From a virus: a stretch of DNA of 64,000 bases. The position numbers and the translations under genes are program-made. How positions within the stretch are numbered: position 1 is the first letter of the stretch; every line of letters begins with the position of its first letter. Below, piece after piece: positions 2,603 through 55,175 of the stretch. The stretch is from the IMG/VR virus record IMGVR_UViG_3300025413_001414, positions 1 to 64,000 of that record; one strand, given 5' to 3'. The notes under the pieces are model-generated. The model was not told the origin of the DNA, searched no databases, and was given only the letters and a program-made list of their open reading frames with translations.

Positions 2603-2674
2603 TATGAGGAGGAATATAAATCTTATTTAGAATCAGTAAAAAGGCAAAATAAAATTGAGGGTATTATAAATAAA

Positions 2675-2709
2675 GAAAACCACCCGGTCTAAGAGGTGGT
2701 TTTTCTTTT
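2675..2709. terminator. Bidirectional intrinsic terminator
   Basis: AAAACCACC...GGTGGTTTTT hairpin between convergent frames. Confidence 0.65.
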
Positions 2710-2730
2710 GTTATCCTGAGGTAGCAGGCG

Positions 2731-3378
2731 TTATTTTGAAAGTAATTTAATTAAATCTTCTGTTATTCTTGTAATAATCTTTTTACCATCTACAGATATC
2801 ATAGGAATATTGGTTATACAACTATATTTATCATTGCCATCTACTTTAATACGTTCAATCATTTTGCAAATATTTGGGTTATTTGAGTAAATTTTATTAT
2901 AATAAGTTTTTAATTCATTGACAAATTTAGATAAATCTACACCTTTTTTATAGTTATATTTAACCATCTGAAGCTCATTATCTTGACGTTCAACCATTAT
3001 GTACCAAATTGAATTTTTAGAAATTTTTACATTTTCTAAAAAGTTAAAACCTTTAGAAGCTTTAGTTCCTTTTGGTAATTTTGCAACTTTACCATAAAGT
3101 CTAACTTTGTTTTCGTTTTTATTAACTTCAGGCTCTTCTAAACCAGAATTATCTTCCTTATCAAAATCTTGTTGATCTGGTAGGGGTTTCATATATCTAG
3201 TACTAGCATTTTTTGGCTTCTTAGTTGAAGTAATAGGCAAATTTGGATTTCCAGGAATATCCTTATCTTCCATAGGTAGAATCTCTTCAGAAGGTTCTTC
3301 CTTAGGTTTGTTATTAATATCTGAAAACTTTTTAAACGAACTTTTCGTGTTTCCAGTTTCTTCATTCTTCCTAATCAT
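2731..3378 (-). CDS. Hypothetical phage protein
   Basis: 215-aa ORF with upstream TAATATATA motif; FKKFSDI near the N-terminus. Confidence 0.7.
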   Translation of the reverse strand: MIRKNEETGNTKSSFKKFSDINNKPKEEPSEEILPMEDKDIPGNPNLPITSTKKPKNASTRYMKPLPDQQDFDKEDNSGLEEPEVNKNENKVRLYGKVAKLPKGTKASKGFNFLENVKISKNSIWYIMVERQDNELQMVKYNYKKGVDLSKFVNELKTYYNKIYSNNPNICKMIERIKVDGNDKYSCITNIPMISVDGKKIITRITEDLIKLLSK

Positions 3379-3492
3379 AGATGGTTATTTAGATTTGTTT
3401 AATATATATATTAAAAATTATAATTGTTTTTTTAATTTCTATTATATATAAATTTTAAATTCCCGGCATTGTATATTCTTAAAATTTTACGG

Positions 3493-3600
3493 TTAGCGAA
3501 CAAGCACGAAAAGAAGCCAGTCGTTACAGTATCCAAGACTTCTAAAATATTTTATTGTCGGAGCAGATATCTTAATATTTACCTCTTTTGTTATTATCAT
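3493..3600 (-). pseudogene. N-terminal relic of a homing-endonuclease-like gene
   Basis: MIITKEVNIKISAPTIKYFRSLGY resembles the N-termini of the 3894, 47181 and 60275 paralogs; TAATATATA upstream. Confidence 0.55.
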
Positions 3601-3625
3601 TTATACAATTTTTATAGTATATATA

Positions 3626-3880
3626 TTAATTTAAATGTTTGTAATAATATTTGTCTACTATATAATTTTTAAAGTTTTTAATAACATTGTGTTCATCAAA
3701 TAAAATAGCGACTAAAACTTGTAATTGTTGTAAAAATGAATTCATTAAATCATTATTGAAAATATAAGGTGAAAGTGTTTTATTCAATAAATTATTTTCA
3801 TAATCAACATAGTCTTGACCAGAATCATTTCTGTGTTTCATATAGTATAACTCCGGTATTTGTCTTCTTTCGTATAACAT
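3626..3880 (-). CDS. Hypothetical protein, possibly baseplate-associated
   Basis: 84-aa ORF co-oriented with the baseplate gene. Confidence 0.55.
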   Translation of the reverse strand: MLYERRQIPELYYMKHRNDSGQDYVDYENNLLNKTLSPYIFNNDLMNSFLQQLQVLVAILFDEHNVIKNFKNYIVDKYYYKHLN

Positions 3881-3893
3881 ATTTAATTAAATA

Positions 3894-8709: not shown

Positions 8710-10713
8710 ATGGCAAACGTTTTTCAGAAATTCCTAAACTGGTTCAAAACCGAAGAAAAAGAAATAGAACAAGTATTTGTAGGTAAAAGTAAAATTGGTA
8801 GAAAGTACACTTGGAAGCCAGACACACCTGACTTTAGAGATTTAAATTACACCGTAGCTAACACTAAGTTACCAAAGTCAGTAGACTTAACAAGTGGTAA
8901 TCCTAATGTGTATGATCAAGGTCAATTAGGTAGTTGTTTTTCAGGAGAAACAAAAATTCCTTTATTAAATGGTGAAGTAAAAACAATAGAAGAATTATAT
9001 AATGAAGGAGAAGAATTTTGGGTTTTTTCTTTGGATGAAAATGGATCATTAGTTGCAGGTAAAGCAAAATCAAATTTAACAGGAATAGATAAAGAGGTTA
9101 TAGAAGTCACATTAGATAATGGAAGTTCTATAATTTGCACACCAGATCACAAATTTATGATGAGGGATGGGACTTTTAAAAAAGTTAGCGAAATAGATTT
9201 TTCAGAATCATTAATGCCTAATAATTTAAAAATTCATTCTAGTGGATATTATCAATATTTTGATAATTTTACTAATAAATGGACATTTGTACATTCCTCT
9301 ATAAATAAGACATTTAATTCAGAATATAAAAAAATTGTCGAAAATAGAATAATCGATAAAGGAGATAGATTTTTAGTAACACATCATAAAAATTTTAATA
9401 AAATGGATAATACTCCCGAAAATCTAGAATGGATGGGTGAATTGGAACATCAATTATATCACAAAACTACATGGAATGGAACAGAGGCTCAGAGGGATCA
9501 TTCTAGAAAACTAATTAATAAAATGTATGAAAATAATCCAAATTGGAACGAAGGGGCATCTTCAATTGGTGGTAAAAAAACCTGGGAATTAGCCAAAAAT
9601 GATCCAGAAAGAATGGAAAAAATTAATAAGTGGAAAAAAGCTGGTCATTCTGATGAATCAAGAAAAAAAGCTAACATATCTCATAAAAAGAAATTCGAAG
9701 ATCCAGTTTTTATGAATAATTTTAAAAAAATTATGAAAAATAAAACTGATAAATATTTATCATTTGAGGAAAATAGAAATAAGTTATCAGAACTTGGTAG
9801 ACAAAATTTGGGAACAAATACAACTAAAAATATGATAATTAAATGGTCTAGAGAATTATTAGACGAAAAAAAAGAAATAAATGAGGAAAATTGGAATGAA
9901 CTCAAGAAAAAAAGTGAATTAAAAAATTTTTATAATTTTTCCACAATTAAAAAGTTCTTTAGTTCAATAGAAGAAGTAAATGAATTAGCATTAAATTATA
10001 ATCACAAAATTATCAATAAAAGAACTATTAATGAAAAAATTAATGTTTATTGTTTAGAAGTTGAAAAGTATCATAACTTTGCCTTAGAATCTGGTGTATT
10101 TGTGCATAATTGTACTGCTAACTCTCTTTCAGGTGCATTTGATTTTGAAAGAATTAAACAAAAATTAGCACCTATTGGACCATCAAGATTATTCATTTAT
10201 TACAATGAAAGATTAATGGAAGGTTCTGTTAATTCGGATTCCGGAGCTCAAATTAGAGATGGTATCAAAGTTCTTGCTTCTCAAGGAGTTTGTCCTGAAA
10301 CTGAATGGCCTTATAACACTGGTCAATTTAAAGTAAAACCAAATGATAAGTGTTATCAAGATGCTAAATCTAATACTATTAAACAATATCTTAGATTAGA
10401 TAATACAAACCTTACTTTATTGAAAACATGTTTATCCCAAGGATATACCTTTGTATTTGGATTTACAGTTTATGAATCATTTGAAGGTGAGGAAGTAGCA
10501 CAAACTGGTATAGTTCCAATGCCAAGTCCTAATGAACAATGTATGGGTGGTCACGCTGTTTATTGTATGGGATATGATGATAGTAAAAAAGCATTCAAAG
10601 TTAGAAATTCTTGGGGAACTGGCTGGGGTGACGGTGGTAATTTTTGGTTACCATATGAATATATGACCAATCCTAATTTAGCAAGTGATTTCTGGACAAT
10701 TAGATTAGTATAA
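8710..10713 (+). CDS. Papain-like C1 cysteine peptidase containing an intein
   Basis: DQGQLGS|CTAN after splicing; SRLFIYYNER, GGHAV, RNSWG..WGDGG. Confidence 0.92.
   Translation: MANVFQKFLNWFKTEEKEIEQVFVGKSKIGRKYTWKPDTPDFRDLNYTVANTKLPKSVDLTSGNPNVYDQGQLGSCFSGETKIPLLNGEVKTIEELYNEGEEFWVFSLDENGSLVAGKAKSNLTGIDKEVIEVTLDNGSSIICTPDHKFMMRDGTFKKVSEIDFSESLMPNNLKIHSSGYYQYFDNFTNKWTFVHSSINKTFNSEYKKIVENRIIDKGDRFLVTHHKNFNKMDNTPENLEWMGELEHQLYHKTTWNGTEAQRDHSRKLINKMYENNPNWNEGASSIGGKKTWELAKNDPERMEKINKWKKAGHSDESRKKANISHKKKFEDPVFMNNFKKIMKNKTDKYLSFEENRNKLSELGRQNLGTNTTKNMIIKWSRELLDEKKEINEENWNELKKKSELKNFYNFSTIKKFFSSIEEVNELALNYNHKIINKRTINEKINVYCLEVEKYHNFALESGVFVHNCTANSLSGAFDFERIKQKLAPIGPSRLFIYYNERLMEGSVNSDSGAQIRDGIKVLASQGVCPETEWPYNTGQFKVKPNDKCYQDAKSNTIKQYLRLDNTNLTLLKTCLSQGYTFVFGFTVYESFEGEEVAQTGIVPMPSPNEQCMGGHAVYCMGYDDSKKAFKVRNSWGTGWGDGGNFWLPYEYMTNPNLASDFWTIRLV
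8935..10110 (+). mobile_element. Intein (392 aa) with HNH endonuclease
   Basis: Starts CFSGET, block B CTPDHKF, HHKNFNKMDNTPENL (HNH), ends VYCLEV..HNF..GVFVHN|C. Confidence 0.93.
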
Positions 10714-12376: not shown

Positions 12377-14827
12377 TTAGTATTGATCCCACCAAAAAGC
12401 ATCATTTACTAGATAATTATATTGACTCGAAGTTGCACTGTAATGTGCAGTTGGTGTGATTAAATTATAAGTATATACACCATTATCAACAGTGCTTATA
12501 AAATACCTATCTCCTGATACAAAATAATCTTCGTAATTACTAGAATTGACACATACACTATTTACTAATCCATCTAGATTATATAAATTTATAGTCCAAT
12601 AATTATTATTGTTTGGATCTTGATAGAAAAATGCAGTATAATTAGTTCCCACACCAATATTATTGCTATCAGCAGGAGGTAACACAATATTACCACTAGT
12701 CGTCGTTGACGTTAAGATATTTATATTTACAGTATTATAACTACCAATCGAAGTTAGTGTATTTGGAGCTAACAATTGAGTAGTATATGATTCATACTCA
12801 TCATTATCATAAGCTCTAGCATAATAAAATACTGGAAGTGACGAAAAAGTAGCATAATTAATACCACTTTTCGCTGTATTATTGTTAAATATAAAGTTTT
12901 CTTGATACAAATATGCTACATAAATCGGTTGACCATTCGAGTGTGATAATCCAAAATGTAAATCTAACTCTCCTGTTAATTGATTATATGAACCAGTGCC
13001 ACCATAATTACTTGTTAGTGAGTTCTGAATAAATTCTGAACCAGTTGGAGATATTGAAATTGAATAATCATATGATTGGAACCCTTCATTACTACCACCA
13101 GTTAATCCAGCAAAGAACCCGTATATAGTTGGTTGAACCCCACCGTAAGTAATCGGTGGAATAAAATGTAAATTATAATTTAATGTATTGGAAGTAGTTC
13201 CAACTCGAAATTCACCATATGCACCGCCGACTTCTGACCAAGTTCTAACATATAATAAATCATAGTAAGGTCTAAAGTTAGCATATTCTGTATCATGTGT
13301 ATCATAATTGGCAATAAAATTACCATTAGCATCATAAATTTTATATCTTTGTAATACTTCAGGATAACTTCCAAGTCTATATTCAATCATTCTCCACTGT
13401 CCAAATGGCTGATATGAAAGATTATCTAAATCAGAAATATTAACATCATCTATATTTATGCTGAAAGTTGAACCATCAGCTTTAATACCTAAAACAGATA
13501 ACTTACCATCTCCATTATCAACAAAGTTAAAAATAGAATTGCTTGTTGGGAAGTTATATAAAGACCCCCTCTCATATCTAGTTCCATAGTCATTTCCCAT
13601 TAACATTATGCTAGCTGTACTTCCATTAGTAAAGTTATAAGTATTGAAATTGTGATCATCAAACTTAGTGATAATATCCAATTTTGTAAGTGTAGTATCT
13701 ATAAGACCTGAATTATTAGTTCCATTACCTAAATAAATTACAACAGATTCCGGATCATATGCTGGTGAACTCGCACCAGCGTAATAAGGATAAAAATCTT
13801 GTGCTACAATCAAACTATTATAATAATCTGGATTATACTCATGTTGTGTAGATGTAAGTTTTATTCCATCAAAATTATAAAAATAATAACTACTATTATC
13901 TGAGTTATACATCGATATCAATATTTTACCAGTTCCATACATATACCAATCACGAGCTGTTATTTCAAGTGATGTTAAATCTTGAGTTACCACTAATACA
14001 CCATCTGAGTTAAAAAAGTTTATAGATTCATAACGTGAGGTATCGTTATTATATGTAGATGTATATACCCAATTACCTGTATAATATATTTCATAATCTT
14101 GTAAAACCACTACAGAAGTATTACTTATATTGTGTATCTCAACATCATTTTTCCCTTTAATAACCCTCCAAGATACATAATCGATATATGAAACACTAAT
14201 TAAAATAGCATTTTCAGTAGTAACACCGTCCCAATTCCATTCAAATGATAGACTAGTTGCTCCTGAATACTTAAGAGTATAAATATTATCTCCATCAAAA
14301 TATGTAATTCCAAATCCATCAGTAGTCGGATATGTATAATATATGATTCTACCATCAACTCCTTGTTTATCATCATAATTAGAAATAAGTAGAGTATCTA
14401 CAAGGGTTCCATTTGCTTGAATGAATAAAGCCGCATAACTATTATTATTAGAATTCTGAAATAAAATATTAAAACCTTTATTTGTAATTACATAATAGTC
14501 AATATAAGACCAGTCAGAAATACTTAATTTAGTGTCTAAAGCTCCTGTCATAGTACCATTGATATCCATAACAAAGTATTCCCAATTAGTCACACCCTGA
14601 CCCCAGAATACTAAATCTTGGCCTGTAGATTCCGGATAGGTTGGGCTTCTTCTAGTTCCACTTCCACCACCGGCTCCTGCTGCTGAGGATGCCGCTGCTG
14701 GTGCAAGTGCGGCTTCATACATCATATTTGATTGATGTAGAAAATATTGTCTAGCCTGCTCTTGAGGTGATAAATTTTTGTATCTTGGTAGGTTTTTAAA
14801 TCTTTCCCAATTTTGTCTATTCCACAT
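12377..14827 (-). CDS. Large beta-rich virion/tail-fibre-like protein
   Basis: 816 aa, N/S/T/Y/G-rich, Ala/Gly linker after a short N-terminal helix. Confidence 0.55.
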   Translation of the reverse strand: MWNRQNWERFKNLPRYKNLSPQEQARQYFLHQSNMMYEAALAPAAASSAAGAGGGSGTRRSPTYPESTGQDLVFWGQGVTNWEYFVMDINGTMTGALDTKLSISDWSYIDYYVITNKGFNILFQNSNNNSYAALFIQANGTLVDTLLISNYDDKQGVDGRIIYYTYPTTDGFGITYFDGDNIYTLKYSGATSLSFEWNWDGVTTENAILISVSYIDYVSWRVIKGKNDVEIHNISNTSVVVLQDYEIYYTGNWVYTSTYNNDTSRYESINFFNSDGVLVVTQDLTSLEITARDWYMYGTGKILISMYNSDNSSYYFYNFDGIKLTSTQHEYNPDYYNSLIVAQDFYPYYAGASSPAYDPESVVIYLGNGTNNSGLIDTTLTKLDIITKFDDHNFNTYNFTNGSTASIMLMGNDYGTRYERGSLYNFPTSNSIFNFVDNGDGKLSVLGIKADGSTFSINIDDVNISDLDNLSYQPFGQWRMIEYRLGSYPEVLQRYKIYDANGNFIANYDTHDTEYANFRPYYDLLYVRTWSEVGGAYGEFRVGTTSNTLNYNLHFIPPITYGGVQPTIYGFFAGLTGGSNEGFQSYDYSISISPTGSEFIQNSLTSNYGGTGSYNQLTGELDLHFGLSHSNGQPIYVAYLYQENFIFNNNTAKSGINYATFSSLPVFYYARAYDNDEYESYTTQLLAPNTLTSIGSYNTVNINILTSTTTSGNIVLPPADSNNIGVGTNYTAFFYQDPNNNNYWTINLYNLDGLVNSVCVNSSNYEDYFVSGDRYFISTVDNGVYTYNLITPTAHYSATSSQYNYLVNDAFWWDQY

Positions 14828-23622: not shown

Positions 23623-23922
23623 ATGTACAACCTATTTACTGAAAAAGACATATTAGATTATTTAATGACTTCTGATTTCAACGAAGGATTAACAAAAGAG
23701 GAATCAAAGTTTTTACTTTTAAAGTATAGGAATTTTTATAGAAATGCTTATTCAAGATATGAACATTTCAAAAATCTGTCAGAAGATTTAAATAAGGATT
23801 TAGATAAAAAAAATCTTGAATTAGAAAAGTTAAATAAACAATTATCAAAAATTCAAGAGGATTTGGAAAAGGAAAAAAACAGAAAACTAACCTGGAAAGA
23901 AAGATTCAGAGGAAAAAAATGA
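23623..23922 (+). CDS. Coiled-coil hypothetical protein
   Basis: Heptad pattern; operon context. Confidence 0.6.
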   Translation: MYNLFTEKDILDYLMTSDFNEGLTKEESKFLLLKYRNFYRNAYSRYEHFKNLSEDLNKDLDKKNLELEKLNKQLSKIQEDLEKEKNRKLTWKERFRGKK

Positions 23923-24149
23923 ACACACAATTTAATACAGGTCAAGTAGTTTATTATGTTACTGGTGCTACTACAGCAACAGTTCATGATCCAGGATCAA
24001 CTGAAACTCATATAATGTATTTCAATGGTAAAGGTTTAGCTGCTCATTTTGTTAAAAATTATGAAATAATCGATTATCAAGAATATCTATCTAATCAAAG
24101 AGATGATAAAATAAATTCAATCATAAATGAATACAAGAATCTATCCTAA
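23919..24149 (+). CDS. Small protein with C-terminal RxxKI tag
   Basis: ...QRDDKINSII. Confidence 0.6.
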   Translation: MNTQFNTGQVVYYVTGATTATVHDPGSTETHIMYFNGKGLAAHFVKNYEIIDYQEYLSNQRDDKINSIINEYKNLS

Positions 24150-24357
24150 GGAATCATTTGATAAAGCTGTTAGACAATATGAGGTAAGAACTACAATTTG
24201 CCCAAGATGTTATTCAAAGGATCTTAGATTAGTTGATTCTAGATTTGCCTGGGTTAATGATTTTGAATGTATAAAATGTGATCATAAATTTAATAAAGAA
24301 CAATCACTAACTGTTGAATCTCTTAGAAATAAAAAAATTGATGATATATTAAAATGA
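24127..24357 (+). CDS. Zn-ribbon protein with C-terminal tag
   Basis: CPRC..CIKC; LRNKKIDDILK. Confidence 0.65.
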   Translation: MNTRIYPKESFDKAVRQYEVRTTICPRCYSKDLRLVDSRFAWVNDFECIKCDHKFNKEQSLTVESLRNKKIDDILK

Positions 24358-26651: not shown

Positions 26652-26870
26652 TTATCTAAGAATTTTATTAATTAAATCATCTCTTTTTTCGGTTAAAATA
26701 ACAGATTTGTAGTCATTTATAGAAACTAAGTCTTCCTCGTTGAATAGACCTTCATGTAAATTTTCGGTAGCCCAAACACAGTCACACAAACCATCTTCTT
26801 TACATTCCACTACTCTCATTTTATTACCACCAGTATTTTTGATAACTAAATCTCCTGGTTTAAATTTCAT
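26652..26870 (-). CDS. YodC/DUF2158-like small protein with C-terminal tag
   Basis: FKPGDLV...GGNKMRV..CVW; KRDDLINKILR. Confidence 0.65.
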   Translation of the reverse strand: MKFKPGDLVIKNTGGNKMRVVECKEDGLCDCVWATENLHEGLFNEEDLVSINDYKSVILTEKRDDLINKILR

Positions 26871-27441: not shown

Positions 27442-27464
<23 letters not shown>

Positions 27465-27669
27465 ATAATTTAATTTTATTTTCTCTTATCATATCTTTAG
27501 TTAAATCAGCTCTTCTATATTGCTCAGCACAATAGTAACATCTGGATCCTTGAAATTGGTAATGAAGACCGAATGTATAAGAACAGTCTTCGCAGTAATG
27601 TAATCCACAAGTATCACAAACCCATTCAGGCTCCACATTCTCGGTATAACAAATATAACAATGTATCAT
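27442..27669 (-). CDS. Cys-rich Zn-finger small protein with C-terminal tag
   Basis: Four CxxC; IRENKIK. Confidence 0.65.
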
Positions 27670-31194: not shown

Positions 31195-33210
31195 TTAATT
31201 ATATATATCTTTAATTATTTTATCTAATATTTCAAACCTATCATATTGGTGAACAATTGCGTAAACTTCACCACTTTGATTCACTATTTGATTATCTTTA
31301 TTAATCGAGATAAAATTAGTTTGACCTAAAGTAGATATTTCCTTAGTATTATTATAGTGTTCTTTTACTTTATCTGGAAATGCATTTGAATAGTAAATAG
31401 GAATTGCTTGTTCGACTACAAAGGAGTTATCACCAGTATCAAGTGAGGATTTTTCAATAATTAATTGAATAAAGAATTCCAAAAAGGGCATTATTTCGTT
31501 TCTATTACCAGCTATAATACCACCATTTAATATAGGTCTATCTTTAACTTTTTCAAAATATTCATCTCCATAAACTCTTTTGATCCAAGTTGTATTAATC
31601 CAACAATTACCAATTGTGTTATCTTCCATACCAAAATGAACAACTCTTTCTTTAAAATAGTTGAAAGGATTATCTTGAAATATAACATCTCTAGAATCTA
31701 CTAATAATATATTTTCATATTGTAGATAATTATCTAATACTATTTTATAATAGAAAGGTCTTAGATTATTAATTGTATTTAGCTTCAGTTGAATATATTC
31801 TGGCTTAATCAATTGATTAATTATATCTATATTGACTGAGTAATCAATTTGTATAGGTTCATATGATAATACCATCAAAGTTCCTTTAAAATTAACTCTT
31901 TCTAAACTTTTAATAAACGGTCTAATCATTTCTGATGTATAGTTTATAGCAACAGTTAGTATTAAATCTTTTTTCATTTCTTTTTTATATACCCAACATC
32001 CTTGAAAATCTTGAATATCTTTTACATCAAAAGATTCATGAACTGCCTTTGTTACACCTTCTAACCCAATAGGCCCAATTCCACCCGGTGGGACGTAAGG
32101 TCCATAATCATGACCAGCAATAATACCACCAACTTTAACTTTAGGTAACCAATGCTCAATATCTTCTTTAACACTCTCATAGGAGTGGTCTCCATCTATG
32201 AAAACAAAATCTAAGGACTCATCTTCATATAATTTAGATGCTGATACAGAAGTTGATCGTATTGGATTGATAATATACTTAACTGGTTTAATATTCTTTA
32301 GAAACTCAATATATAACCCATCTTTGTTGCTTAATAAAGGTTCAAACCACGGACTATAAGGGTCTCTATGCACATCGGCCCCATCCCAAGTATCAACACA
32401 GTCGAACTGTATCTTTTTTCCTGAGTTATGTATCTCTACAGCCATATAAGCTGAGCTTCTACCTTTCCACGACCCAACCTCTACAAAGTGGCTTCCTTCT
32501 GGAAATTGTTTGACCATACTTGAGTATAGATCAGGGTAGGTAAACCAGTCCTCTCCTAAATTTTGATAAAAGTGTTCCATCTTTTTATTTATGAATAGTA
32601 TATTTTTTTGGTGTAGATTAGTATATGTATTTACTAATTCATCTAATGTCTCTGCCTCTTTAAATCCCAATTCGTCCATGAACTTACAAACCTCATCATA
32701 CAATGGAGAACCCTGATTATAAGGAGTCATAGATACTTCTAATAATATCCCTTTAGCTCTACTACATATATTTCTACCACCTGTTATTATATCTAATTCA
32801 GAACCTTGTGTATCTAACTTTATTAAATCAAATTCCTCGTTTAAGATATCATCTAGTTTGACTCCTTTCTTTTTGATAATATTAATCTTATCATCAGAAT
32901 ACCAATCTGTCAACTCTCTATATATAGAATTACCAGTTGAGATTGGATTATTAGTTGTATAAAAATCATATTCTGAATTATCTTTAGCTAATAAACCTAT
33001 ATAGTAAGAATTGGTAAGTTTTTTGAGGTGTATTTCACATTCTTCTGAAGCTTCTACCGAGAATATGTAGGCATCAGGAAACTGTTCTTTAGCGAAGTAA
33101 TGAAATTGTCCAATATTTGCACCTATATCTAATATTCTATTTGGGTAGAAATACTTTTTGATAGGGGTTAAGTCAGTGCTATCTTCTTTTTTATATTGAC
33201 TAAACTCCAT
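31195..33210 (-). CDS. Fusion: FkbM methyltransferase + class I methyltransferase + GT-A-like domain
   Basis: LDIGANIG/KLDTQGSE; VEVGSWKGRS/FIDGDHSYE/GHDY; LVDSRDVIFQ/NGG/HQYDR. Confidence 0.85.
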   Translation of the reverse strand: MEFSQYKKEDSTDLTPIKKYFYPNRILDIGANIGQFHYFAKEQFPDAYIFSVEASEECEIHLKKLTNSYYIGLLAKDNSEYDFYTTNNPISTGNSIYRELTDWYSDDKINIIKKKGVKLDDILNEEFDLIKLDTQGSELDIITGGRNICSRAKGILLEVSMTPYNQGSPLYDEVCKFMDELGFKEAETLDELVNTYTNLHQKNILFINKKMEHFYQNLGEDWFTYPDLYSSMVKQFPEGSHFVEVGSWKGRSSAYMAVEIHNSGKKIQFDCVDTWDGADVHRDPYSPWFEPLLSNKDGLYIEFLKNIKPVKYIINPIRSTSVSASKLYEDESLDFVFIDGDHSYESVKEDIEHWLPKVKVGGIIAGHDYGPYVPPGGIGPIGLEGVTKAVHESFDVKDIQDFQGCWVYKKEMKKDLILTVAINYTSEMIRPFIKSLERVNFKGTLMVLSYEPIQIDYSVNIDIINQLIKPEYIQLKLNTINNLRPFYYKIVLDNYLQYENILLVDSRDVIFQDNPFNYFKERVVHFGMEDNTIGNCWINTTWIKRVYGDEYFEKVKDRPILNGGIIAGNRNEIMPFLEFFIQLIIEKSSLDTGDNSFVVEQAIPIYYSNAFPDKVKEHYNNTKEISTLGQTNFISINKDNQIVNQSGEVYAIVHQYDRFEILDKIIKDIYN

Positions 33211-33309: not shown

Positions 33310-34443
33310 TTACTTGGTTGGTTTATTGATTCGTTTGATATTAACGAGAACATCTTTGAACGAAATCATAAACTTCTTAATCTTCGGATCTGACACGTCA
33401 GGAACGTTATCGAGAACGTGTAACAGATAAGCCGTCAATTCATCATCACCGACCCTCTTCAAGAACTTGGTAACATTGTCGATTTGTTTATCAGACAATT
33501 TCTTGATATCGTACTCCTTCAATGATTGGATCAATTCAGAGTTTTTATCACGATTATACTTATCCAATTCTTTTACTACAGTGTCGTAACGGTCAATAAT
33601 ATCTTGGATAGTGATATTAATCATTTCTTGACAATATTGTAAGAAACGTTGAGCGCCGTTACCAATGTAAGAGTGTGCGATGTTCTGTAGAACTGGCAAG
33701 AATGCCTTTGGAGACGAATCTTTACCGAAATTGTTACAAATAAAGTCACTCAAGAATGTCCAAGAACGAGGCGTTGCGTAAGCCTTAGTACTTTCAGTTG
33801 GGGCTTGATACAACTTTTCAGGGTAGTTCTTGATGTAGGAAACTACAATCGGGTGAACTTTATCCTTAGCGAAGTTATCAATCCATTCATCAGCACCTAA
33901 AGTATGTGAATAGTGAATCAAACGGTTATTAAGAGCGTTGTCGAATTCTTCAACATCAGTACCATCTTCATCACCAAGGTTACCACTGGACATCATCAAT
34001 ACGGTATCATTGAATTTGAACTCAGTACCGATTTGACGTTCAAGAAGAATTTGAAGAGCCGCGTTACGAACTGGTAGAGAAGCACGATTCAATTCTTCAA
34101 AGTGAATAATCGTAGGTTGTTTGTTAGCCTCAATAGCCCAACGAGGAACTACGAAGTCAAGACATTTAACACCCGAAACATCACTGACACTAGGATAAAG
34201 ACCTACGTCGGTTTCGTCAACCATTGAAAGTCGAATATCCATATATCTAAATCCTATTTTTTCAGCAATTGAACGTGAAATTGCTGATTTTGCAATACCA
34301 GGTTTAGAAGTAATGTAAAGAACACCGGATTTAGGCCACATTACCATGAAGTAAAGACGTTCACGTTCAGTAAGAGCGTTCATCTTGGCCATAAATTCTT
34401 GTGGTAGACCTGCTTTTGTATCTTTGTTTTCTGCCATAATCAT
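33310..34443 (-). CDS. MoxR-like AAA+ ATPase
   Basis: SKPGIAKS (Walker A variant), IHFEELNRA, GN, ALNNR, TPRSW. Confidence 0.85.
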   Translation of the reverse strand: MIMAENKDTKAGLPQEFMAKMNALTERERLYFMVMWPKSGVLYITSKPGIAKSAISRSIAEKIGFRYMDIRLSMVDETDVGLYPSVSDVSGVKCLDFVVPRWAIEANKQPTIIHFEELNRASLPVRNAALQILLERQIGTEFKFNDTVLMMSSGNLGDEDGTDVEEFDNALNNRLIHYSHTLGADEWIDNFAKDKVHPIVVSYIKNYPEKLYQAPTESTKAYATPRSWTFLSDFICNNFGKDSSPKAFLPVLQNIAHSYIGNGAQRFLQYCQEMINITIQDIIDRYDTVVKELDKYNRDKNSELIQSLKEYDIKKLSDKQIDNVTKFLKRVGDDELTAYLLHVLDNVPDVSDPKIKKFMISFKDVLVNIKRINKPTK

Positions 34444-40121: not shown

Positions 40122-40457
40122 TTACATTGAAAATGAATTTCCGCATCCACAAACACGAGAAGCTTGTGGATTGATCCATTCAAAACCTCTACCATTTAAC
40201 CCATCAGAGTAATTTAATTCGGTTCCCCACAAATATAATAAAGATTTTTTATCAACTAAAACTTTAAGCCCGCCATCAACATCAAAAACTTCATCAACTC
40301 CTTCCTGAATTTTATCATCAAAATCCATGGTATAGCTCAAGCCACTGCAGCCCCCACCCTTCACTCCGACTCTGAGGTGGTGTGTATCTGGTGTGATTCC
40401 TTCTTTCATCATTAATTCTATGATATGTTCTAAAGCTTGATTTGTAACGGTTATCAT
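40122..40457 (-). CDS. iscA: A-type Fe-S cluster carrier (IscA/HesB)
   Basis: LRVGVKGGGCSGLSY, NPQA..CGCGNSF. Confidence 0.93.
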   Translation of the reverse strand: MITVTNQALEHIIELMMKEGITPDTHHLRVGVKGGGCSGLSYTMDFDDKIQEGVDEVFDVDGGLKVLVDKKSLLYLWGTELNYSDGLNGRGFEWINPQASRVCGCGNSFSM

Positions 40458-40768
40458 AATATTTGATTTAATTTTTGTTCTCTAATATATGATTGATATT
40501 TACTAACTGTATCATTACAATACTTTGAGGTAAATTTCATATCATATTTTATAATATATTTATAATTCTTTTGCTTTTTAAAGAAGCTGTCGTAAAAGTG
40601 TCTCTCTAATTCTTCGATTAATTCACAATTATAAAAAATAAAATGTCTTTCAGAGTGCTTAGAATATTTTATAATTTGTGGAATATCTATTTTTTCATTG
40701 ACAATTATATGCAACAATCCACCATCAAATGTCACATTTACTATCACTATTTCATTTTTAAAACTCAT
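40454..40768 (-). CDS. Small protein with C-terminal tag
   Basis: IREQKLNQIL*. Confidence 0.6.
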   Translation of the reverse strand: MSFKNEIVIVNVTFDGGLLHIIVNEKIDIPQIIKYSKHSERHFIFYNCELIEELERHFYDSFFKKQKNYKYIIKYDMKFTSKYCNDTVSKYQSYIREQKLNQIL

Positions 40769-44568: not shown

Positions 44569-45261
44569 TTAAATTAATATTTTTTCAATCTTTTCATTCC
44601 TTAACTCAGCCATATCTATATCCCAATCACGTAAATAAGAGTGAGGTAGATGATCCCTAAATGATGGTATGAGTTTAGTCCAACGCTCATCTAAAGATGA
44701 ATATTCAAATCTTGCATTAAAGATAAATGAATGATATGGTATCTCAAAATCTTTATAAAAATCATCTAAGAAATTAACAAACTCTTCCAATATTTTTTGT
44801 TCTGAATCATAGTTTTCATTTTCATCATCAACCAATCCCAATTGACTATTTGGAGTATAAAAAGTTACTTCATCACGAACATCATCTAAGACATGTGAAT
44901 TACCAAAAGGTCTTTTATAACACATCATAATTGCATTATCTTTATAATCATCAAAGTCAAGGTATAAAAAACGAAGTAATCCCATATGATAATCCTTGAT
45001 ATTATGTTTATCTAAAGTGGATTGAGAGGGTTTACCTATCATACTAATGAACTGCATGCAAACAAATAAACGAGAGAGTTCTTCTATGTCTTTAATATGC
45101 GGATTATCTGATAGCTTCCAAACAAGTTGAGGACTATAATAGCTTGATTCTGATTTGCTAGAGACCAAACTATTTATCTTCTCAATATCACTATCTGTAA
45201 TAGAGAATTTTTGGTCTTTGACCAGTCCGTAATTTCCGTAAAAATAAGCTGAATTATACAT
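44569..45261 (-). CDS. Hypothetical protein with C-terminal tag
   Basis: LRNEKIEKILI*. Confidence 0.65.
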   Translation of the reverse strand: MYNSAYFYGNYGLVKDQKFSITDSDIEKINSLVSSKSESSYYSPQLVWKLSDNPHIKDIEELSRLFVCMQFISMIGKPSQSTLDKHNIKDYHMGLLRFLYLDFDDYKDNAIMMCYKRPFGNSHVLDDVRDEVTFYTPNSQLGLVDDENENYDSEQKILEEFVNFLDDFYKDFEIPYHSFIFNARFEYSSLDERWTKLIPSFRDHLPHSYLRDWDIDMAELRNEKIEKILI

Positions 45262-45498: not shown

Positions 45499-45529
45499 AA
45501 AAAAATAGGAACCGAAGTTCCTATTTTTT
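45499..45529 (-). terminator. Intrinsic terminator after the VWA gene
   Basis: AAAAAATAGGAAC-CGAA-GTTCCTATTTTT (UUCG loop on the - strand). Confidence 0.8.
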
Positions 45530-47048
45530 ACTTATCATCATTTTCCAAAACAATCTGTTTTACTTTACCATTTGAACGAGCGATTGGAACTTTAGTACCA
45601 ACAGATATCATCAAGACATTACCTTTAACTTTTGACAAATCAAGTGAGTCAGTATAACCATCTGTTAACAGAATTGTTGCGTATTGGTTGAAGTGTTCTA
45701 CTACATAGTCAAATCCAGTTTGCATTATTGTACCTCCAAGTCCGCGAATTGGAACTTTATCCAATCCTTTCTTATTCTTGATATTTTTAACCCATTTGAT
45801 TTCAGTATCACTTTCAATCAAATTGATTTCAATATCGTTACGATATACATAAGAAAGAACTCTTTCAAAAGTGCCAGATCCACCCATACTTCCTGATGTA
45901 TCAAGAATAACGTTAATCTTTGTTTTAATCTTACGGTTACCTTTCAAACCAGGCACTTGACGACGATTAGGTTTAACAATAGTCTTTTGTTTTTTAGTAC
46001 CAAAGATTTCATTAGCGATTGAACGCTTGATATGTTTCAAATAATCTTTCCTTTTCTTACGAAGCTTATTCAAAGTCTGTTCGATGTTTCCTACTTGAAG
46101 GCCACGAGCCTGTAATCTTTCCATCACATCTTTTACCATAGACTCTCTCATTTCCTCCGGAATTTCATCACCCATGTGGACGTCCATGTATTGACCTTGA
46201 GTATTCTCCATGTTGTCAAAGATTTGATCCAATGACCAAGTATCAATAGTTCCTTTGTCATTTTTCGGATCTTTACCATAAGGGCCATAAGAAGATTTAC
46301 CTTGAGAATCTTTACCATCTTGACCACCACTTCCACCACAATCTGGACAAGGTTCGCCTTTACCATGTTGATGACCTTGACCATTTTGATTCTGACCATT
46401 CTGATCTTGTTGACCATCTTGACCACTCTGACCTTGACCATCTTGTGGCTGAGCTTCACCTTGATCTTGTTGAGGTTGACCTTGTTGATTCTTTTGACCC
46501 TCTTGTTTTTGACCAGTACCGTTACAAGTCTTACACTGGCCGTTTTTCTTTTGTTTCTTTTTGTGCTCGTCTTGTTTATCACGAAGCCACTCATAAACTT
46601 CTTCAAAGATTAATTTACCAGTATATTCTTTAGGAATAAACAAAGCCATGTTCTTACCATTTTCATCCTTAGGAATTTCAATGAAAGAATTTGGAATATC
46701 TTCCCAGATGATATGATTGATAATCATATCTTGAGCGATATTAGAAAGTTGATGGTCGTATTGACCAGTAATAGTACGTTTAGGGTGATTCCACAAAAGG
46801 TGGAAATCTTCGTGTAGAGTAATGAAGTTAACCTCTTTTTGAGACATCTTCTCCAAGAACTCTGAATTGTAATAGAATTGCATACCCTTTGCAGTCATAT
46901 TTACACCACAAGTAGGTACTGCTTTATTATTTTCGTGGAAGTTAATGAAAAGATTGAACGTTCCATAATATGGTAGGTTCACTTTTGTATCAATCAACAT
47001 AATCTGTATAGATTCCATTAATTTCTCGTGAATGTTCTTTAATTGCAT
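45528..47048 (-). CDS. DUF2201-type metallopeptidase + VWA protein (MoxR partner)
   Basis: LHEDFH (HExxH), NIAQD..IN; DTSGS, GGT, LTDGY MIDAS motifs; promoter at 47072-79. Confidence 0.87.
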   Translation of the reverse strand: MQLKNIHEKLMESIQIMLIDTKVNLPYYGTFNLFINFHENNKAVPTCGVNMTAKGMQFYYNSEFLEKMSQKEVNFITLHEDFHLLWNHPKRTITGQYDHQLSNIAQDMIINHIIWEDIPNSFIEIPKDENGKNMALFIPKEYTGKLIFEEVYEWLRDKQDEHKKKQKKNGQCKTCNGTGQKQEGQKNQQGQPQQDQGEAQPQDGQGQSGQDGQQDQNGQNQNGQGHQHGKGEPCPDCGGSGGQDGKDSQGKSSYGPYGKDPKNDKGTIDTWSLDQIFDNMENTQGQYMDVHMGDEIPEEMRESMVKDVMERLQARGLQVGNIEQTLNKLRKKRKDYLKHIKRSIANEIFGTKKQKTIVKPNRRQVPGLKGNRKIKTKINVILDTSGSMGGSGTFERVLSYVYRNDIEINLIESDTEIKWVKNIKNKKGLDKVPIRGLGGTIMQTGFDYVVEHFNQYATILLTDGYTDSLDLSKVKGNVLMISVGTKVPIARSNGKVKQIVLENDDK

Positions 47049-50613: not shown

Positions 50614-50617
50614 ATAA

Positions 50618-51557: not shown

Positions 51558-51566
51558 AAATTAAAT

Positions 51567-52907: not shown

Positions 52908-52927
52908 TTTTTTACAAAAATACGTAA

Positions 52928-53341
52928 TTATTTTGAGTTATCCAACAAATTTTCAATACCGATTTCTCTTCGTTTGATTTTTGCTTCTTCGTCGGTAAGT
53001 GGATCAGGTAATTTTTGACCAAAAGTATCTACTAACTTTGAGACATTTATATATTTATCACTTATACTTATTAGATCAAGTAAATCTGGATCAGTAGTGG
53101 TTACCACATCTACATCTTCATACAAATCTGGAAGCGAATTATAAATCAATTCTAATTCTTTTGTAAATTCGGAAAAGTTTTCTATTACAATTGTATCATC
53201 CTCACTAAAATTATCAATAGATAAAATTAATAACAGTAATAATTCTTTTCGAGTAAGGTTTTTAATTTTTTCGGATTGCTTAGTTACATTGAAATTTAAA
53301 TAAATTTCTTTAAATAAGTCACTAACAGTTAAATTTTCCAT
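52928..53341 (-). CDS. Hypothetical protein with C-terminal tag
   Basis: RREIGIENLL. Confidence 0.6.
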   Translation of the reverse strand: MENLTVSDLFKEIYLNFNVTKQSEKIKNLTRKELLLLLILSIDNFSEDDTIVIENFSEFTKELELIYNSLPDLYEDVDVVTTTDPDLLDLISISDKYINVSKLVDTFGQKLPDPLTDEEAKIKRREIGIENLLDNSK

Positions 53342-53625
53342 TATTCTTCTAATAGTTTTGATAAAACGTATTCACGGTATTCTTGAGCCCCAACAGATCC
53401 AAGTGAATAGGCTCGTCTGAAAAAAACCTCAAATATATTTTCATTACCAATTTCTTTAGCAGCAATAGCACGATTGATACATTTATATTCATCGGTGATT
53501 AGACTTGCTTGCTTTTGTGCTAAGTGTCTTTCCGTATCAACATTTCCATCTGACTTGGAAATAATATCTCTAACACGCTTATAGTTTTTTTCAAATTCTG
53601 ATTTTGATTGACCACGTATCGGCAT
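53341..53625 (-). CDS. Hypothetical protein
   Basis: 94 aa; ends YREYVLSKLLEE. Confidence 0.6.
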   Translation of the reverse strand: MPIRGQSKSEFEKNYKRVRDIISKSDGNVDTERHLAQKQASLITDEYKCINRAIAAKEIGNENIFEVFFRRAYSLGSVGAQEYREYVLSKLLEE

Positions 53626-53636
53626 AAATATTATAG

Positions 53637-54095
53637 TTAATTTTTTTCAAATAAAGAATTAATAATCTCATTTCTAATAACATCCTGATGTATGAAGTAA
53701 TCCTCAAAGAAATGGACTGTAGTATCGAAATGATGAGATCCATACAATTCTTCTACTTCTAACTTTGTTAAATAACAAAAAAAGTGATTTACCGAATCTT
53801 GATCTAAGATATTATAAAAAGGTATTTCTACCTTTCTCCTATAAATATCTTTGTCGGATACTCTCTTATTAATTCTCTGTAAATCTTGTATTTCTTCTTC
53901 TGTTAATTTTTTACCAATGTAAGGCTTAGTCAGATTTAAAAAAGATTTTAATTCATACATATATTTTTTATAATCGGTGATAACTTCAACTTTTTTATCG
54001 ACTATTTCAGTCACATTATACCAATCATCTTGTTCAAAAAAGATGCCCCAATGTGCATCATATGTCTTTATACATTTTACTTTCATATTATTCAA
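53637..54095 (-). CDS. Hypothetical protein with C-terminal tag
   Basis: MKVKCIK...IRNEIINSLF. Confidence 0.6.
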   Translation of the reverse strand: MNNMKVKCIKTYDAHWGIFFEQDDWYNVTEIVDKKVEVITDYKKYMYELKSFLNLTKPYIGKKLTEEEIQDLQRINKRVSDKDIYRRKVEIPFYNILDQDSVNHFFCYLTKLEVEELYGSHHFDTTVHFFEDYFIHQDVIRNEIINSLFEKN

Positions 54096-54471
54096 AGTCA
54101 GCTATTGGTATTTCTTTAGCCAAATCAGACCTGGTTTTTTTAGGTTTAGGCTTATAAACCATATTTAAGGCACTATATTTTATATCTTCATTTTGAACCA
54201 CTTTACTTGATTTTAAAATATCTTGTAGTATTTTAGGATCCGGATTTTTATGAAGATACAAGGCTATATCTAATATCATATTTTGAGTATCCTTATGTCG
54301 TATTTTATCAATCTCATATCCATATTTATTAGAAAGATAGGTTACGAATCCATATGGCAAAGTATTATTACCTGATTCTATATTCTGAATAATAAGTCTA
54401 TGATAGTCTATATTCATCACCAATTCTCTTGGGACTACTATAGACAAATCTTTTTGTATAAGTTCCATCAT
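54088..54471 (-). CDS. Hypothetical protein
   Basis: 127 aa. Confidence 0.55.
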   Translation of the reverse strand: MMELIQKDLSIVVPRELVMNIDYHRLIIQNIESGNNTLPYGFVTYLSNKYGYEIDKIRHKDTQNMILDIALYLHKNPDPKILQDILKSSKVVQNEDIKYSALNMVYKPKPKKTRSDLAKEIPIADFE

Positions 54472-54488
54472 ATTTTATATTTAATATT

Positions 54489-54711
54489 ATAGTGACGATT
54501 ATACCCGCGGTTCTGTTTTATTCTATCATTTATCTCACCTTTCGGTGGCCTATTAAGGCTGCCTCAACCCGACTATCGTTGGGAAACCGACACCCTAAGT
54601 CTGTATGAGTTGCTACTTCTTTGGTCTAACGACTGATTAGGTCTTCCAAATTAGGTTTTGTAGCCGCGAAGTTCCTCTAGCATTTGCCAGCGATAGATCA
54701 TCCATCACTAT
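54489..54711 (-). ncRNA. rnpB: RNase P RNA, minimal (catalytic domain only)
   Basis: GAGGAACU-U-CGCGG / ACAGAACCGCGGGU (P4 with bulged U); P1 10 bp, P2 7 bp, P3; P5 CUAC/GUAG-CAA; P6 AAACC/GGUUU; P15 with GGU; P18 CACC-GAAA-GGUG; AGAUAAAUGA. Confidence 0.9.
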
Positions 54712-55175
54712 GTTAATATTTCTAAATTCAATTCTCTTTTAAACTTTTGTTTATACTCACCAATAAATTCCTCTAAAAGTGGGTGAATATGTGGATATAT
54801 TTCTTCACGAATATTATCAACATCACCAATATACTCTTTGAATAATTTTAAAATTCTATTAGGTGTATTTGGTATAATATTAATTAAACATAAATAGTTT
54901 AAAACCCTTTCTTTTTTAGGATCTAATTTTTTACCACTTTTATTCCATGTGTCCATCCATTCCAATTTTAAAGACATTGCTTTAAAATCAGTAACAACTA
55001 CACTCTGCCACCAATCAGAAAATTCATTATCCCTAATCACTGGATCAAATCCAATCATCTTGGTATATTTTTCCCATATATAATCAATATTGGATCGTAA
55101 GACATATGTATCATTACAAGCCTTATGAAACATTATTGAAAATGTTAATAAGTTATCTACCTGGTCATTATTCAT
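54708..55175 (-). CDS. Hypothetical protein with C-terminal tag, probably leaderless
   Basis: KRELNLEILT*; TATATTTG at 55180-87 just upstream of the ATG. Confidence 0.6.
   Translation of the reverse strand: MNNDQVDNLLTFSIMFHKACNDTYVLRSNIDYIWEKYTKMIGFDPVIRDNEFSDWWQSVVVTDFKAMSLKLEWMDTWNKSGKKLDPKKERVLNYLCLINIIPNTPNRILKLFKEYIGDVDNIREEIYPHIHPLLEEFIGEYKQKFKRELNLEILT

Follow-up and report, generated by a model that had tools for sequence, protein, structure and literature searches.

Many small, unrelated proteins of a huge phage end in a common C-terminal tag, which is real and occurs far above chance. The tag was analysed in a window of 64,000 nt, the whole stretch of DNA under study, which is part of a 78.7 kb fragment with 27% GC that extends beyond the window as 64001-78698. 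The source is an uncultured huge Bacteroidetes phage of the 'Mahaphage' type, with relatives of 634-642 kb. The core of the tag reads φ-R-[DNE]-x-K-[IL]-[NDE]-x-[IL]-[LIF]. The extended tag of 10-16 residues reads (K/L)-(S/Q)-x-φ-R-[DNE]-x-K-[IL]-[NDE]-x-[IL]-[LIF]-[NDK] and is followed by 0-8 residues. In 11-12 of 108 genes the core was found at most 8 residues from the stop, whereas composition-matched shuffles predicted 0.1-0.5 such cases. No description of this C-terminal tag was found in the published literature. On balance, we favour the reading of the tag as a portable docking label that is recognised by one conserved partner and recruits small accessory proteins.

The enrichment on this contig was tested with the pattern R..[KLIN][IL]..[IL][ILF], which matched 11 times at the C-terminus, once in the interior and never at the N-terminus. 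With the same pattern, shuffling of the whole proteins gave 0.10 C-terminal matches and shuffling of the last 18 residues gave 0.21. A tag HMM was then trained on the tags of the relatives only and used with a threshold of at least 6 bits. It found 11 matches on this contig, 11 of 11 at most 8 residues from the protein end, compared to 0.5 matches in shuffled proteomes and 0 in the reversed proteome. Five further tag matches were found in the fragment beyond the window, which served as a held-out test. The first-pass annotation had proposed the motif from ten peptides on unrelated proteins. Its enrichment at the C-termini was borne out (11 against 0.1-0.5 expected), nine of the ten peptides sit at the true ORF C-termini of their genes, the bodies are mutually unrelated and none of these proteins carries the N-terminal tag described below.

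At 27% GC, and with motif residues that have AT-rich codons, the motif might be a by-product of composition, or else a DNA or translation signal at the gene ends. However, the shuffles, the reversed proteomes, AT-rich control phages and cellular genomes all gave close to zero matches. The codons beneath the motif vary, with Arg written in five codons, and selection therefore targets the peptide rather than the DNA. Codon usage within the tag is that of the genome, and tags also precede convergent genes, the next gene being convergent after two of the tagged genes; both observations speak against a gene-end signal. The flanks downstream of the tagged genes are unrelated to one another. The composition or gene-end reading is refuted by these controls and was given practically no weight.

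The tags and tag-like ends in the window are listed in Table 1. In the gene for the YodC-like protein, the tag was kept in 31 of 31 aligned homologues with R63 invariant, and in the gene for the 230 aa protein it was kept in 27 of 27 homologues with R221 invariant. The fold of the latter was compared with the PDB without a match. The Zn-ribbon body gave a weak match to Zn_ribbon_8, under the Pfam cut-off. Homologues of gene 53637-54095 have variant endings of the RDKKLKELG type. For the two degenerate tags, a 43%-identical homologue of gene 27442-27669 in L065 ends with a tandem double tag, and a 26%-identical homologue of gene 54708-55175 in L089 ends with RRDNNLTLLL at the stop. A homologue search with gene 52928-53341 found none. 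The product of gene 31195-33210 is a 671 aa FkbM-type methyltransferase/glycosyltransferase, and since proteins of more than 250 aa are almost never tagged, its tag-like end is possibly due to chance. The tenth peptide of the first-pass annotation, KRQNKIEGII, had been assigned to the end of a 'restored' ORF at 2304. This was wrong since all three frames are stopped between 2304 and 2600; the stretch at 2639 is a remnant or a tiny ORF and not the end of ORF 1129-2304.

Table 1. Tags and tag-like ends in the window. All peptides given run to the stop codon.
Gene	Strand	Tag position	C-terminal peptide	Product	HMM match	Grading
23919-24149	+	24099..24149	QRDDKINSIINEYKNLS	76 aa	14.3 bits, 6 residues from end; pattern match	strong
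24127-24357	+	24325..24357	LRNKKIDDILK	76 aa, Zn-ribbon body	17.5 bits	strong
26652-26870	-	26652..26684	KRDDLINKILR	72 aa, YodC-like beta-barrel	9.9 bits	strong
27442-27669	-	27442..27486	15 aa	75 aa	7.7 bits	degenerate, supported by tagged homologue
40454-40768	-	40454..40483	IREQKLNQIL	104 aa	16.8 bits, at extreme protein end	strong
44569-45261	-	44569..44601	LRNEKIEKILI	230 aa	9.3 bits	strong
53637-54095	-	53637..53675	IRNEIINSLFEKN	152 aa	7.1 bits	strong
54708-55175	-	54708..54737	KRELNLEILT (variant)	155 aa	under threshold	degenerate, supported by tagged homologue
52928-53341	-	52928..52969	RREIGIENLLDNSK	137 aa	<4 bits	weak or unsupported; unconfirmed candidate of the first-pass annotation
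31195-33210	-	31195..31239	DRFEILDKIIKDIYN		<4 bits; loose pattern match only	weak or unsupported; new candidate
	+	2639..2692	KRQNKIEGIINKENHPV (holds KRQNKIEGII)	open stretch of ~33 codons		tag-like remnant

The tag is restricted to one clade of huge phages. It is present on about 9% of the genes in two complete relatives and was also found in more than 100 IMG/VR huge-phage fragments. Counted per genome, 37 of 421 genes carried it in LR745206 (1-295 kb), 6 of 62 in L001 and 8-10 of 73 in LR756502. Control phages of equal AT content (phage G, CP220 and LR756500) gave 0 tag matches in 175 genes. Exact matches to the pattern were at ORF ends in 51 of 86 cases in IMG/VR and in 2 of 120 in cellular genomes (p = 1.7e-22), the latter control being searched with AT-rich codons (AGA for Arg), by which the motif of GC-richer hosts would be missed.

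The tag was retained in homologues at 26-63% identity. When tagged homologue pairs of 26-45% identity were compared, the tag or a variant of it was retained in 11 of 11, and in untagged pairs gains of the tag were seen in 0 of 64. The consensus did not drift between divergent genomes. In LR745206, 11 good copies of the tag are interior, compared to 37 terminal ones, and a free C-terminal end is therefore not strictly required.

The 247 tagged proteins fall into 164 families that are unrelated by BLAST. The carriers are small, soluble and mostly orphan proteins; about 6 of 121 tagged-family representatives had any Pfam match, and one tagged body is Tad2-like. The tag is found on 15-16% of the proteins below 120 aa, but on only 1 of 167 above 250 aa. 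These properties bear on the possibility that the tag is a sliding-clamp-binding tail, like those of the T4 gp45 clients or the PIP box. That many clients bind the clamp through a C-terminal tail is well established, and the tag has the spacing of the PIP box, [DNE]2-x-x-[IL]5-x-x-[IL]8-[LIF]9. However, the nearly untagged proteins above 250 aa are the size class of the replication enzymes, and Pfam replication domains were found in 0 of the 121 tagged families. In addition, DNA polymerase is the canonical clamp client, and in LR745206 it ends with VVMDIFGGFK at the stop, a T4/RB69-like hydrophobic aromatic tail instead of the tag. A clamp-binding function is hardly credible.

Counted from the arginine as position 1, the information content of the tag peaks at positions -4, -3, 1, 2, 4, 5, 6, 8 and 9, and positions 3 and 7 are free. 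In the logo (n=54), 48 of 54 tags have D/E/N at position 2; I/L occupies position 8 and L/I/F position 9, where F is seen in 8 of 54. The conserved residues fall on one face of a predicted amphipathic helix. With AF2, a terminal helix was predicted in two unrelated tagged bodies. In the YodC-like protein, it spans residues 51-71, past the barrel, and has a pLDDT of 63-72 compared to 84-92 in the barrel, although the helix is near-invariant. In the 230 aa protein, it spans residues 217-229 with a pLDDT of about 83, and it may be packed against the body. One conserved helical face and portability over the 164 unrelated families are the features of a generic docking short linear motif.

A helix of this kind could also act without an external reader, by tag-tag pairing or as a stabilising C-terminal cap. 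The limitation of the tag to small proteins and the fairly confident helix of the 230 aa model are consistent with this, as are the double-tag and repeated body-plus-tag proteins (P0065, L065 and L005:39587-40294). The spacing from R1 to D/E6 is the i-to-i+5 spacing of coiled-coil g-e' pairs. However, the hydrophobic patch covers about two turns and is cut off from the upstream hydrophobic residues by the polar T-E-K-R-D-D in the YodC-like alignment, and is therefore too short for a stable coiled coil. Self-interfaces could diverge over more than 160 families, yet the consensus is uniform, including the polar rim and the Arg, and a cap leaves the restriction to one clade unexplained. We consider self-association or capping unlikely.

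Since the conservation is at the peptide level and on one helical face, helices were predicted by AF2, the tag is retained in homologues and the consensus shows no drift, a docking helix remains our preferred reading. The first-pass annotation had likewise suggested an amphipathic docking helix that addresses unrelated small proteins to a common partner, and this part is the best-supported explanation. The helix face would present a small hydrophobic patch (I5, I8 and L9) with a rim of the invariant Arg, a Lys and two acidic/amide residues. This face would insert into a groove on one conserved putative reader protein. Through the tag, the products of about 1/10 of the phage genes would, in the infection, be brought to one and the same partner or be handled by it. 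Docking may lead to co-localisation, to hand-over to an AAA+ machine or to timed removal. The tagged products are small, soluble and mostly orphan accessory proteins, and their genes favour operons with promoters of the host-σA type (non-late). We infer that a single external reader imposes the constraint on the tag. Because the consensus is undrifted between divergent genomes, we lean towards a hub that evolves slowly, which may be a protein of the host or a core protein of the phage.

One such machine would be an AAA+ protease or unfoldase, to which the tag, as a degron or adaptor tether, would deliver the small proteins or whatever targets their bodies bind. In the manner of ssrA-type tags or the ClpX-binding SspB tail, it could serve the timed removal of early proteins or the induced degradation of host factors. 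This would be a special case of the docking model. The terminal and modular position of the tag on many unrelated small proteins with a non-late bias is in line with it, and an undrifting consensus is expected of a conserved host machine. However, in known C-terminal degrons the end must be free, and here the helix is trailed by 0-8 variable residues and also occurs in interior copies. Neither ssrA nor the SspB tail shares the helical form and the conserved acidic residues of the motif, and host C-termini with the motif were not found in a search that was biased to AT-rich codons. A degron or tether is thus an improbable explanation.

The promoters of the tagged genes were then considered. In flavobacteria, the σA -7 box is TAnnTTTG (PMC9723704), and the late motif was confirmed ahead of the genes for the portal and the major capsid protein. 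With promoter classes assigned from motifs, the ratio of σA-type to late-type operons was 12:11 for the C-tagged genes and 56:179 for the other genes (p = 0.006), a skew that weakens to p = 0.05 when the genes of this contig are joined to those of LR745206. About 30% of the C-tagged genes are in late-type operons. A second tag, N-terminal and similar to the T4 CTS, marks small genes within the head module, and its ratio was 0:15. In LR745206, 15 of 19 N-tagged genes are directly behind a late motif and 0 behind a σA-type motif. No gene was found that carries both tags. The C-terminal tag is distinct from the late CTS-like N-terminal tag. We infer that its carriers act early, in host takeover or anti-defence.

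These results bear on whether the tag is a second packaging signal by which proteins are loaded into the head and injected, like the T4 internal proteins or encapsulin cargo. The phages of this clade have T4-type Gp23 capsid and portal proteins, huge capsids could accommodate cargo, a Tad2-like body is among the tagged ones and a part of the tagged genes is in late-type operons. The packaged internal proteins of T4 are defence proteins (PMC3012670). However, since the separate CTS-like tag already marks the late head-module genes and the C-tagged genes are shifted to non-late operons, targeting to a capsid or compartment is disfavoured and seems quite improbable to us; a phage compartment was among the possible partners listed by the first-pass annotation.

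The first-pass annotation had also named the MoxR/VWA machine as a possible reader, here a phage MoxR-type AAA+ ATPase with its DUF2201 VWA/metallopeptidase partner. Both genes are within the window (33310-34443 and 45528-47048), with the DUF2201 gene a short way upstream of gene 44569-45261, which is tagged. Acidic residues are bound by VWA MIDAS sites, and the two conserved acidic positions of the tag could suit them. However, DUF2201_N is equally present in the tag-negative phage G and LR756500, and in LR745206 a long distance separates the DUF2201 gene (511 kb) from the homologue of 44569-45261 (328 kb). This partner is not supported and is very unlikely to be the reader.

Returning to the docking label, a bolder model, to which we give limited credence, is that huge Bacteroidetes phages use two orthogonal address labels across their proteome. 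The N-terminal CTS-like tag would send late proteins to the head, and the C-terminal Arg-helix would send small proteins of host takeover or anti-defence, a rapidly evolving arsenal that makes up about 10% of the proteome, to one conserved hub. The hub would be a hijacked host machine, with the variable bodies as interchangeable adaptors that bring targets, or an organising centre built by the phage. Small orphans without a handle make up most of the gene content of huge phages, and the tag, shared by about 1/10 of the genes, defines a functional class without homology. It provides a single bait peptide for the hub on which the tagged proteins would converge, and marks a candidate host-takeover or anti-defence set, in which a Tad2-like body is already present. 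A reader that belongs to the host would point to a central vulnerability of Bacteroidetes cells that is exploited by phages; one encoded by the phage would be a new organising device of giant virocells. A portable tag of 10 residues with a dedicated reader would, if true, also be useful as a tool.

Among known systems, the T4 CTS is similar in that a short conserved terminal peptide is the sole common element of diverse small phage accessory or defence proteins with one destination, in phages with T4-type heads (PMC3012670). However, the CTS is N-terminal and on late head-associated proteins, whereas this tag was within 8 residues of the C-terminus in 11 of 11 HMM matches, never N-terminal, and its genes are depleted from operons with late promoter motifs (12:11 against 56:179). 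Its sequence is unrelated, and the phages seem to own a separate CTS-like N-terminal tag on late genes. When compared to the prohead-protease site of the CTS, (L/I)-x-E, the tag has L/I/V at -4 in 33% and E at -2 in 22%.

The ssrA tag and the SspB tail, which binds the ClpX N-domain, are short C-terminal peptides read by one hub machine, and like them this tag is portable and on unrelated proteins. Unlike them, it is helical with an invariant Arg and conserved acidic positions, a free carboxyl end is not needed, and a fixed distance to the carboxylate is absent, with 0-8 variable residues after L9. Clamp-binding tails (T4/RB69 gp45 clients, PIP box, bacterial beta-clamp motif) plug a hydrophobic pocket and share with the tag the principle of one short terminal motif on many clients and a similar hydrophobic spacing. 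However, the carriers here are small orphans and not replication enzymes, the polymerase of the clade ends in a different tail, and the tag lacks the Gln and the aromatic pair of the PIP box and is not of the beta-clamp QL[SD]LF type. From the coiled-coil trimerisation motif R-h-x-x-h-E the tag differs in the residue after the Arg, which is D/E/N in 48 of 54 and not hydrophobic as in that motif, and in the polar stretch before the YodC-like tag, where the motif calls for an unbroken heptad pattern of at least 2-3 heptads.

The eukaryotic ΦxxΦΦ and LxxLL motifs and the encapsulation peptides of bacterial microcompartments and encapsulins are groove-docking helices. They resemble the tag as amphipathic helices of two to three turns on unrelated bodies, with a hydrophobic patch and a charged rim. 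They differ in sequence and in setting, which is here a bacteriophage with no compartment known, and the cargo peptides also differ in their carriers, which here are small orphans with almost no Pfam enzymes. The phage capsid was the only HK97-type or Gp23-type shell found, and it is served by the other, N-terminal tag. In the poxvirus ankyrin proteins, a C-terminal PRANC/F-box-like module plugs variable bodies into one host machine. As in our phages, where the link to the host is a conjecture, a viral family has variable target-binding bodies that share a C-terminal element. However, the PRANC module is a folded domain, and the bodies that bear it are related to one another as ankyrin proteins, whereas here a peptide of about 10 residues is shared by unrelated bodies.

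The first-pass annotation had proposed that about ten small proteins of the window, otherwise unrelated, share a short C-terminal tag, and nine of the ten peptides that it listed were confirmed at real ORF ends. The tenth, KRQNKIEGII (nt 2639), had been read as the C-terminus of a restored gene. There, the open stretch is only ~33 codons long, and none of the three frames is free of stops between 2304 and 2600. The peptide therefore belongs to a remnant or tiny ORF and does not end a restored protein. The region 2305-2730 (~430 bp) has stops in all plus frames, a tag-like remnant at nt 2639-2692 and no tRNA; it may represent either a small gene in decay or a non-coding RNA.

For the counts, 108 genes were called mechanically and searched with the loose pattern R..[KLIN][IL]..[IL][ILF]. 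The pattern matched 11 C-termini, one interior position and no N-terminus, whereas 0.10 C-terminal matches were expected from whole-protein shuffles and 0.21 when only the last 18 residues were shuffled. To avoid circularity, an HMM was built from the tags of the relatives only and applied with a threshold of at least 6 bits. It detected 11 proteins of the contig, all with the tag at most 8 residues from the end, against a background of 0.5 hits for each shuffled proteome and none in the reversed one. Since the motif had been defined on the window, the part of the contig beyond it served as a held-out test, and tagged genes were found there as well (see table).

The codons vary beneath the constant tag peptide: isoleucine is encoded by ATA, ATT or ATC, leucine by TTA, CTT or TTG, and arginine by five codons. 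Codon usage in the tag matches that of the genome, with only a marginal A/T skew, and the sequences 3' of the stop codons of tagged genes are unrelated to each other. Two of the tagged genes have a convergent neighbour behind them, which excludes a signal for downstream translation; together with the varying codons and the unrelated flanks, this rules out a DNA-level or translation-coupling signal.

The window covers the first 64 kb of one contig, which has 78,698 bp and 27% GC. The contig encodes topoisomerase II subunits, two Dam methylases, a CCA-adding or poly(A) polymerase, four DUF7487 nucleases, a MoxR-like AAA+ protein, a DUF2201 VWA/metallopeptidase and an intein-bearing papain-like protease. 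In the latter, the intein (Intein_splicing and Hint matches) interrupts a papain-family cysteine protease at 8710-10713 (+). No relatives of the contig's proteins were found outside large IMG/VR contigs and the records of uncultured huge phages of 634-642 kb (LR745206.1 and LR756502.1), and the contig is best read as a piece of a huge phage. By Al-Shayeb et al. 2020 (PMC7162821), the 634-642 kb genomes are assigned to the 'Mahaphage' clade with predicted Bacteroidetes hosts.

Over 295 kb of LR745206, the tag stands at the end of 37 of the 421 genes and at the start of none, with 11 interior matches. A further 40.7 kb (locus L001) has 6 tagged genes out of 62, and 50 kb of LR756502 has 8-10 out of 73. 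When the consensus pattern was back-translated and searched against IMG/VR, 113 stretches were found; 51 of 86 matches lay terminally in an ORF of 35 or more codons, the stop following within 9 codons, and the loci contained 132 C-terminal tags among 1,462 genes. The same pattern in 185,579 prokaryotic species, each represented by one genome, gave 120 matches, only 2 of them C-terminal (viral versus cellular placement, p = 1.7e-22). None of 175 genes was tagged in the equally AT-rich controls Bacillus phage G, Campylobacter phage CP220 and 50 kb of the 462 kb phage LR756500, and the pattern counts over whole records (4, 1, 0, 0, 0) were consistent with these gene-level controls. A composition artefact is ruled out by the shuffles, the reversed proteomes, the AT-rich control phages and the cellular genomes. 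Since these controls lack the tag and the small tag-positive IMG/VR contigs were all linear fragments (10/10, CheckV completeness 6-17%), the tag was confined to huge phages in the sample examined. In INPHARED, the tagged families matched only uncultured huge-phage records and no cultured phage. In a library-wide profile search for single tags, only three matches passed, namely two translations of tandem DNA repeats and one genuine double-tag protein. The two translations, the library entries P0063 (907 aa) and P0064 (433 aa), are predicted 'proteins' made of perfect ~57-residue repeats (…TRGQNIKQILYY…), which imitate multi-copy tag matches in such searches.

Coordinates of tagged genes beyond the window, promoter motifs and genes with the N-terminal motif (N-tag)
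Feature	Sequence	Position (strand where given)	Remark
C-terminally tagged gene	contig, beyond window	65292-65639	
C-terminally tagged gene	contig, beyond window	66971-67501	
C-terminally tagged gene	contig, beyond window	69446-69841	
C-terminally tagged gene	contig, beyond window	70843-71394	
C-terminally tagged gene	contig, beyond window	74491-74694	
AATATATA motif upstream of genes	window	12377-14827(-), 19129, 34713, 47181, 58845-60236(-)	examples
AATATATA motif upstream of genes	LR745206	193127, 200752	portal, major capsid
N-tag genes	window	11090, 16280, 25208, 38788(-), 38825, 43143(-), 43953	gene starts
N-tag genes	LR745206	202508, 204294	head module

That the bodies of the tagged proteins differ, as had been stated, was borne out: 247 tag-bearing proteins fall into 164 families unrelated by BLAST. 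Only ~6 of 121 family representatives had any Pfam match (FkbM-type methyltransferase, Tad2-like domain, DUF7336, Zn ribbon and weak others). The tag is found on 15-16% of proteins shorter than 120 aa but on only 1 of 167 proteins longer than 250 aa. Compared with size-matched untagged proteins, the carriers showed no difference in charge, CxxC content or TM-like or signal-like segments, and clustering of tagged genes beyond the bias towards small-gene regions was not significant (p = 0.19). The most widespread tagged family, of 72-77 aa, ends with RDxKIDDIFD(D/E)LD(F) and includes LR745206.1 129552-129785 (-) and 15 relatives (e.g. at the huge-phage loci L024, L027 and L032).

When homologues of 26-45% identity were paired and one member was tagged, the partner had the tag or a recognisable variant in 11 of 11 cases, whereas a tag was gained in none of 64 untagged pairs. 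On these comparisons, tag status is evolutionarily stable. Within families, the mean column identity was 0.65-0.73 in the tag, 0.61-0.65 in the body and 0.53-0.56 in the preceding 30 residues. The tag consensus was the same across four genome groups (p = 0.12-0.77), with orthologous bodies at 26-45% identity.

The logo of 54 instances reads φ(-1) R1 [D/E/N]2 x3 K4 [I/L]5 [N/D/E]6 x7 [I/L]8 [L/I/F]9 [N/D/K]10, and the protein ends 0-7 residues after L9. Information is also present at positions that the pattern leaves free (2, 6, 10, -3 and -4). On a helical projection (100 degrees per residue), the informative positions fall on a single contiguous face, with positions 3 and 7 opposite, which matches an amphipathic helix with a single conserved face including a charged rim. 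AF2 predicted for the YodC-like protein (32-sequence alignment) a beta-barrel at 1-50 (pLDDT 84-92), after which comes one helix at 51-71 (63-72), although R63, D65 and I67 in it vary little or not at all. For the 230 aa protein at 44569-45261 (-), whose LR745206 homologue (44% identical) retains the tag, the model from 27 sequences is a confident fold (pLDDT 89, pTM 0.89) with the tag as its last element, helix 217-229. A Foldseek search of this model against the PDB gave no match at E <= 0.001, and the predicted structure may represent a new fold. Some proteins carry two tags, in tandem or as two body-plus-tag repeats (L065:475-726 (+), P0065 and L005:39587-40294 (+)), with the tandem RDYKIDYIL-RNEKIKNILK ending the L065 protein. 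Elsewhere, e.g. in L041, L080 and L006:22830-24440, a good copy lies inside the protein, with a further domain after it.

A membrane-binding helix is ruled out on sequence by the conserved acidic residues, the lack of an aromatic or cationic face and the soluble-looking carriers. The main non-docking rivals are self-association of the helix or a stabilising cap; against both, the hydrophobic patch is short and the polar rim uniform. One external partner gripping the helix would explain the data best, since more than 160 unrelated bodies share a single constraint, which is uniform across divergent genomes, confined to one helical face and includes an invariant arginine. A degron or protease tether would be a special case of such docking.

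In both genomes, the motif (T)AATATATA(A) is 15-18-fold enriched in the intergenic DNA upstream of genes, at a distance of 11-40 nt from the start codon. In the complete relatives LR745206 and LR756502, AATATATA(A) stands before the T4-type genes for portal and major capsid protein, and because of this position the motif is probably a late promoter. A separate N-tag, M-K/R-x-I-K-x-F/Y-E-x-F, occurs on a different gene set from the C-terminal tag. It resembles the capsid targeting sequence (CTS) of phage T4 and is probably a head-targeting signal of that type. The existence and role of the T4 sequence are described in PMC3012670. In LR745206, the late motif immediately precedes 15 of the 19 N-tag genes and TAnnTTTG precedes none; several of these genes are interspersed in the portal/major-capsid (head) module. 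TAnnTTTG, the flavobacterial σA -7 box (PMC9723704), heads other operons than the AATATATA motif.

The C-tagged genes are mostly operon-internal. At the operon level, their ratio of σA-type to late-type motifs was 12:11, versus 56:179 for other genes (p = 0.006, weakening to p = 0.05 once the contig's own genes were pooled) and 0:15 for N-tagged genes (p = 0.0008). These splits set the C-tagged genes apart from the probably head-targeted set and suggest a shift to non-late expression, which is, judged from motifs alone, statistical and not absolute. Packaging into the head is disfavoured, both by this promoter bias and by the existence of a separate CTS-like N-tag.

As the partner, the MoxR/VWA machine named in the first pass has no specific support, since DUF2201 is present in tag-positive and tag-negative phages alike and co-occurrence fails. 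The sliding clamp was rejected as well: large proteins lack the tag, and the C-terminal piece of the LR745206 DNA polymerase ends with ...VVMDIFGGFK, which is not the tag and which we take to be a T4/RB69-type clamp-binding tail. This family-B polymerase is seemingly in two pieces ~100 kb apart (LR745206.1 130568-131992 (-) and 232803-234344 (+)), an arrangement also seen in LR756502. The RDxKIDDIFD-family gene adjoins a polymerase piece, and beyond its tag it has an acidic, aromatic tail with a loose likeness to that of the polymerase.

No description of the label, its carriers or its clade was found in literature searches or by looking up terms in huge-phage papers. A short terminal label that is placed on unrelated proteins and recognised by one reader is an established principle, with precedents in the T4 CTS, degrons, clamp-binding tails and cargo-loading peptides.
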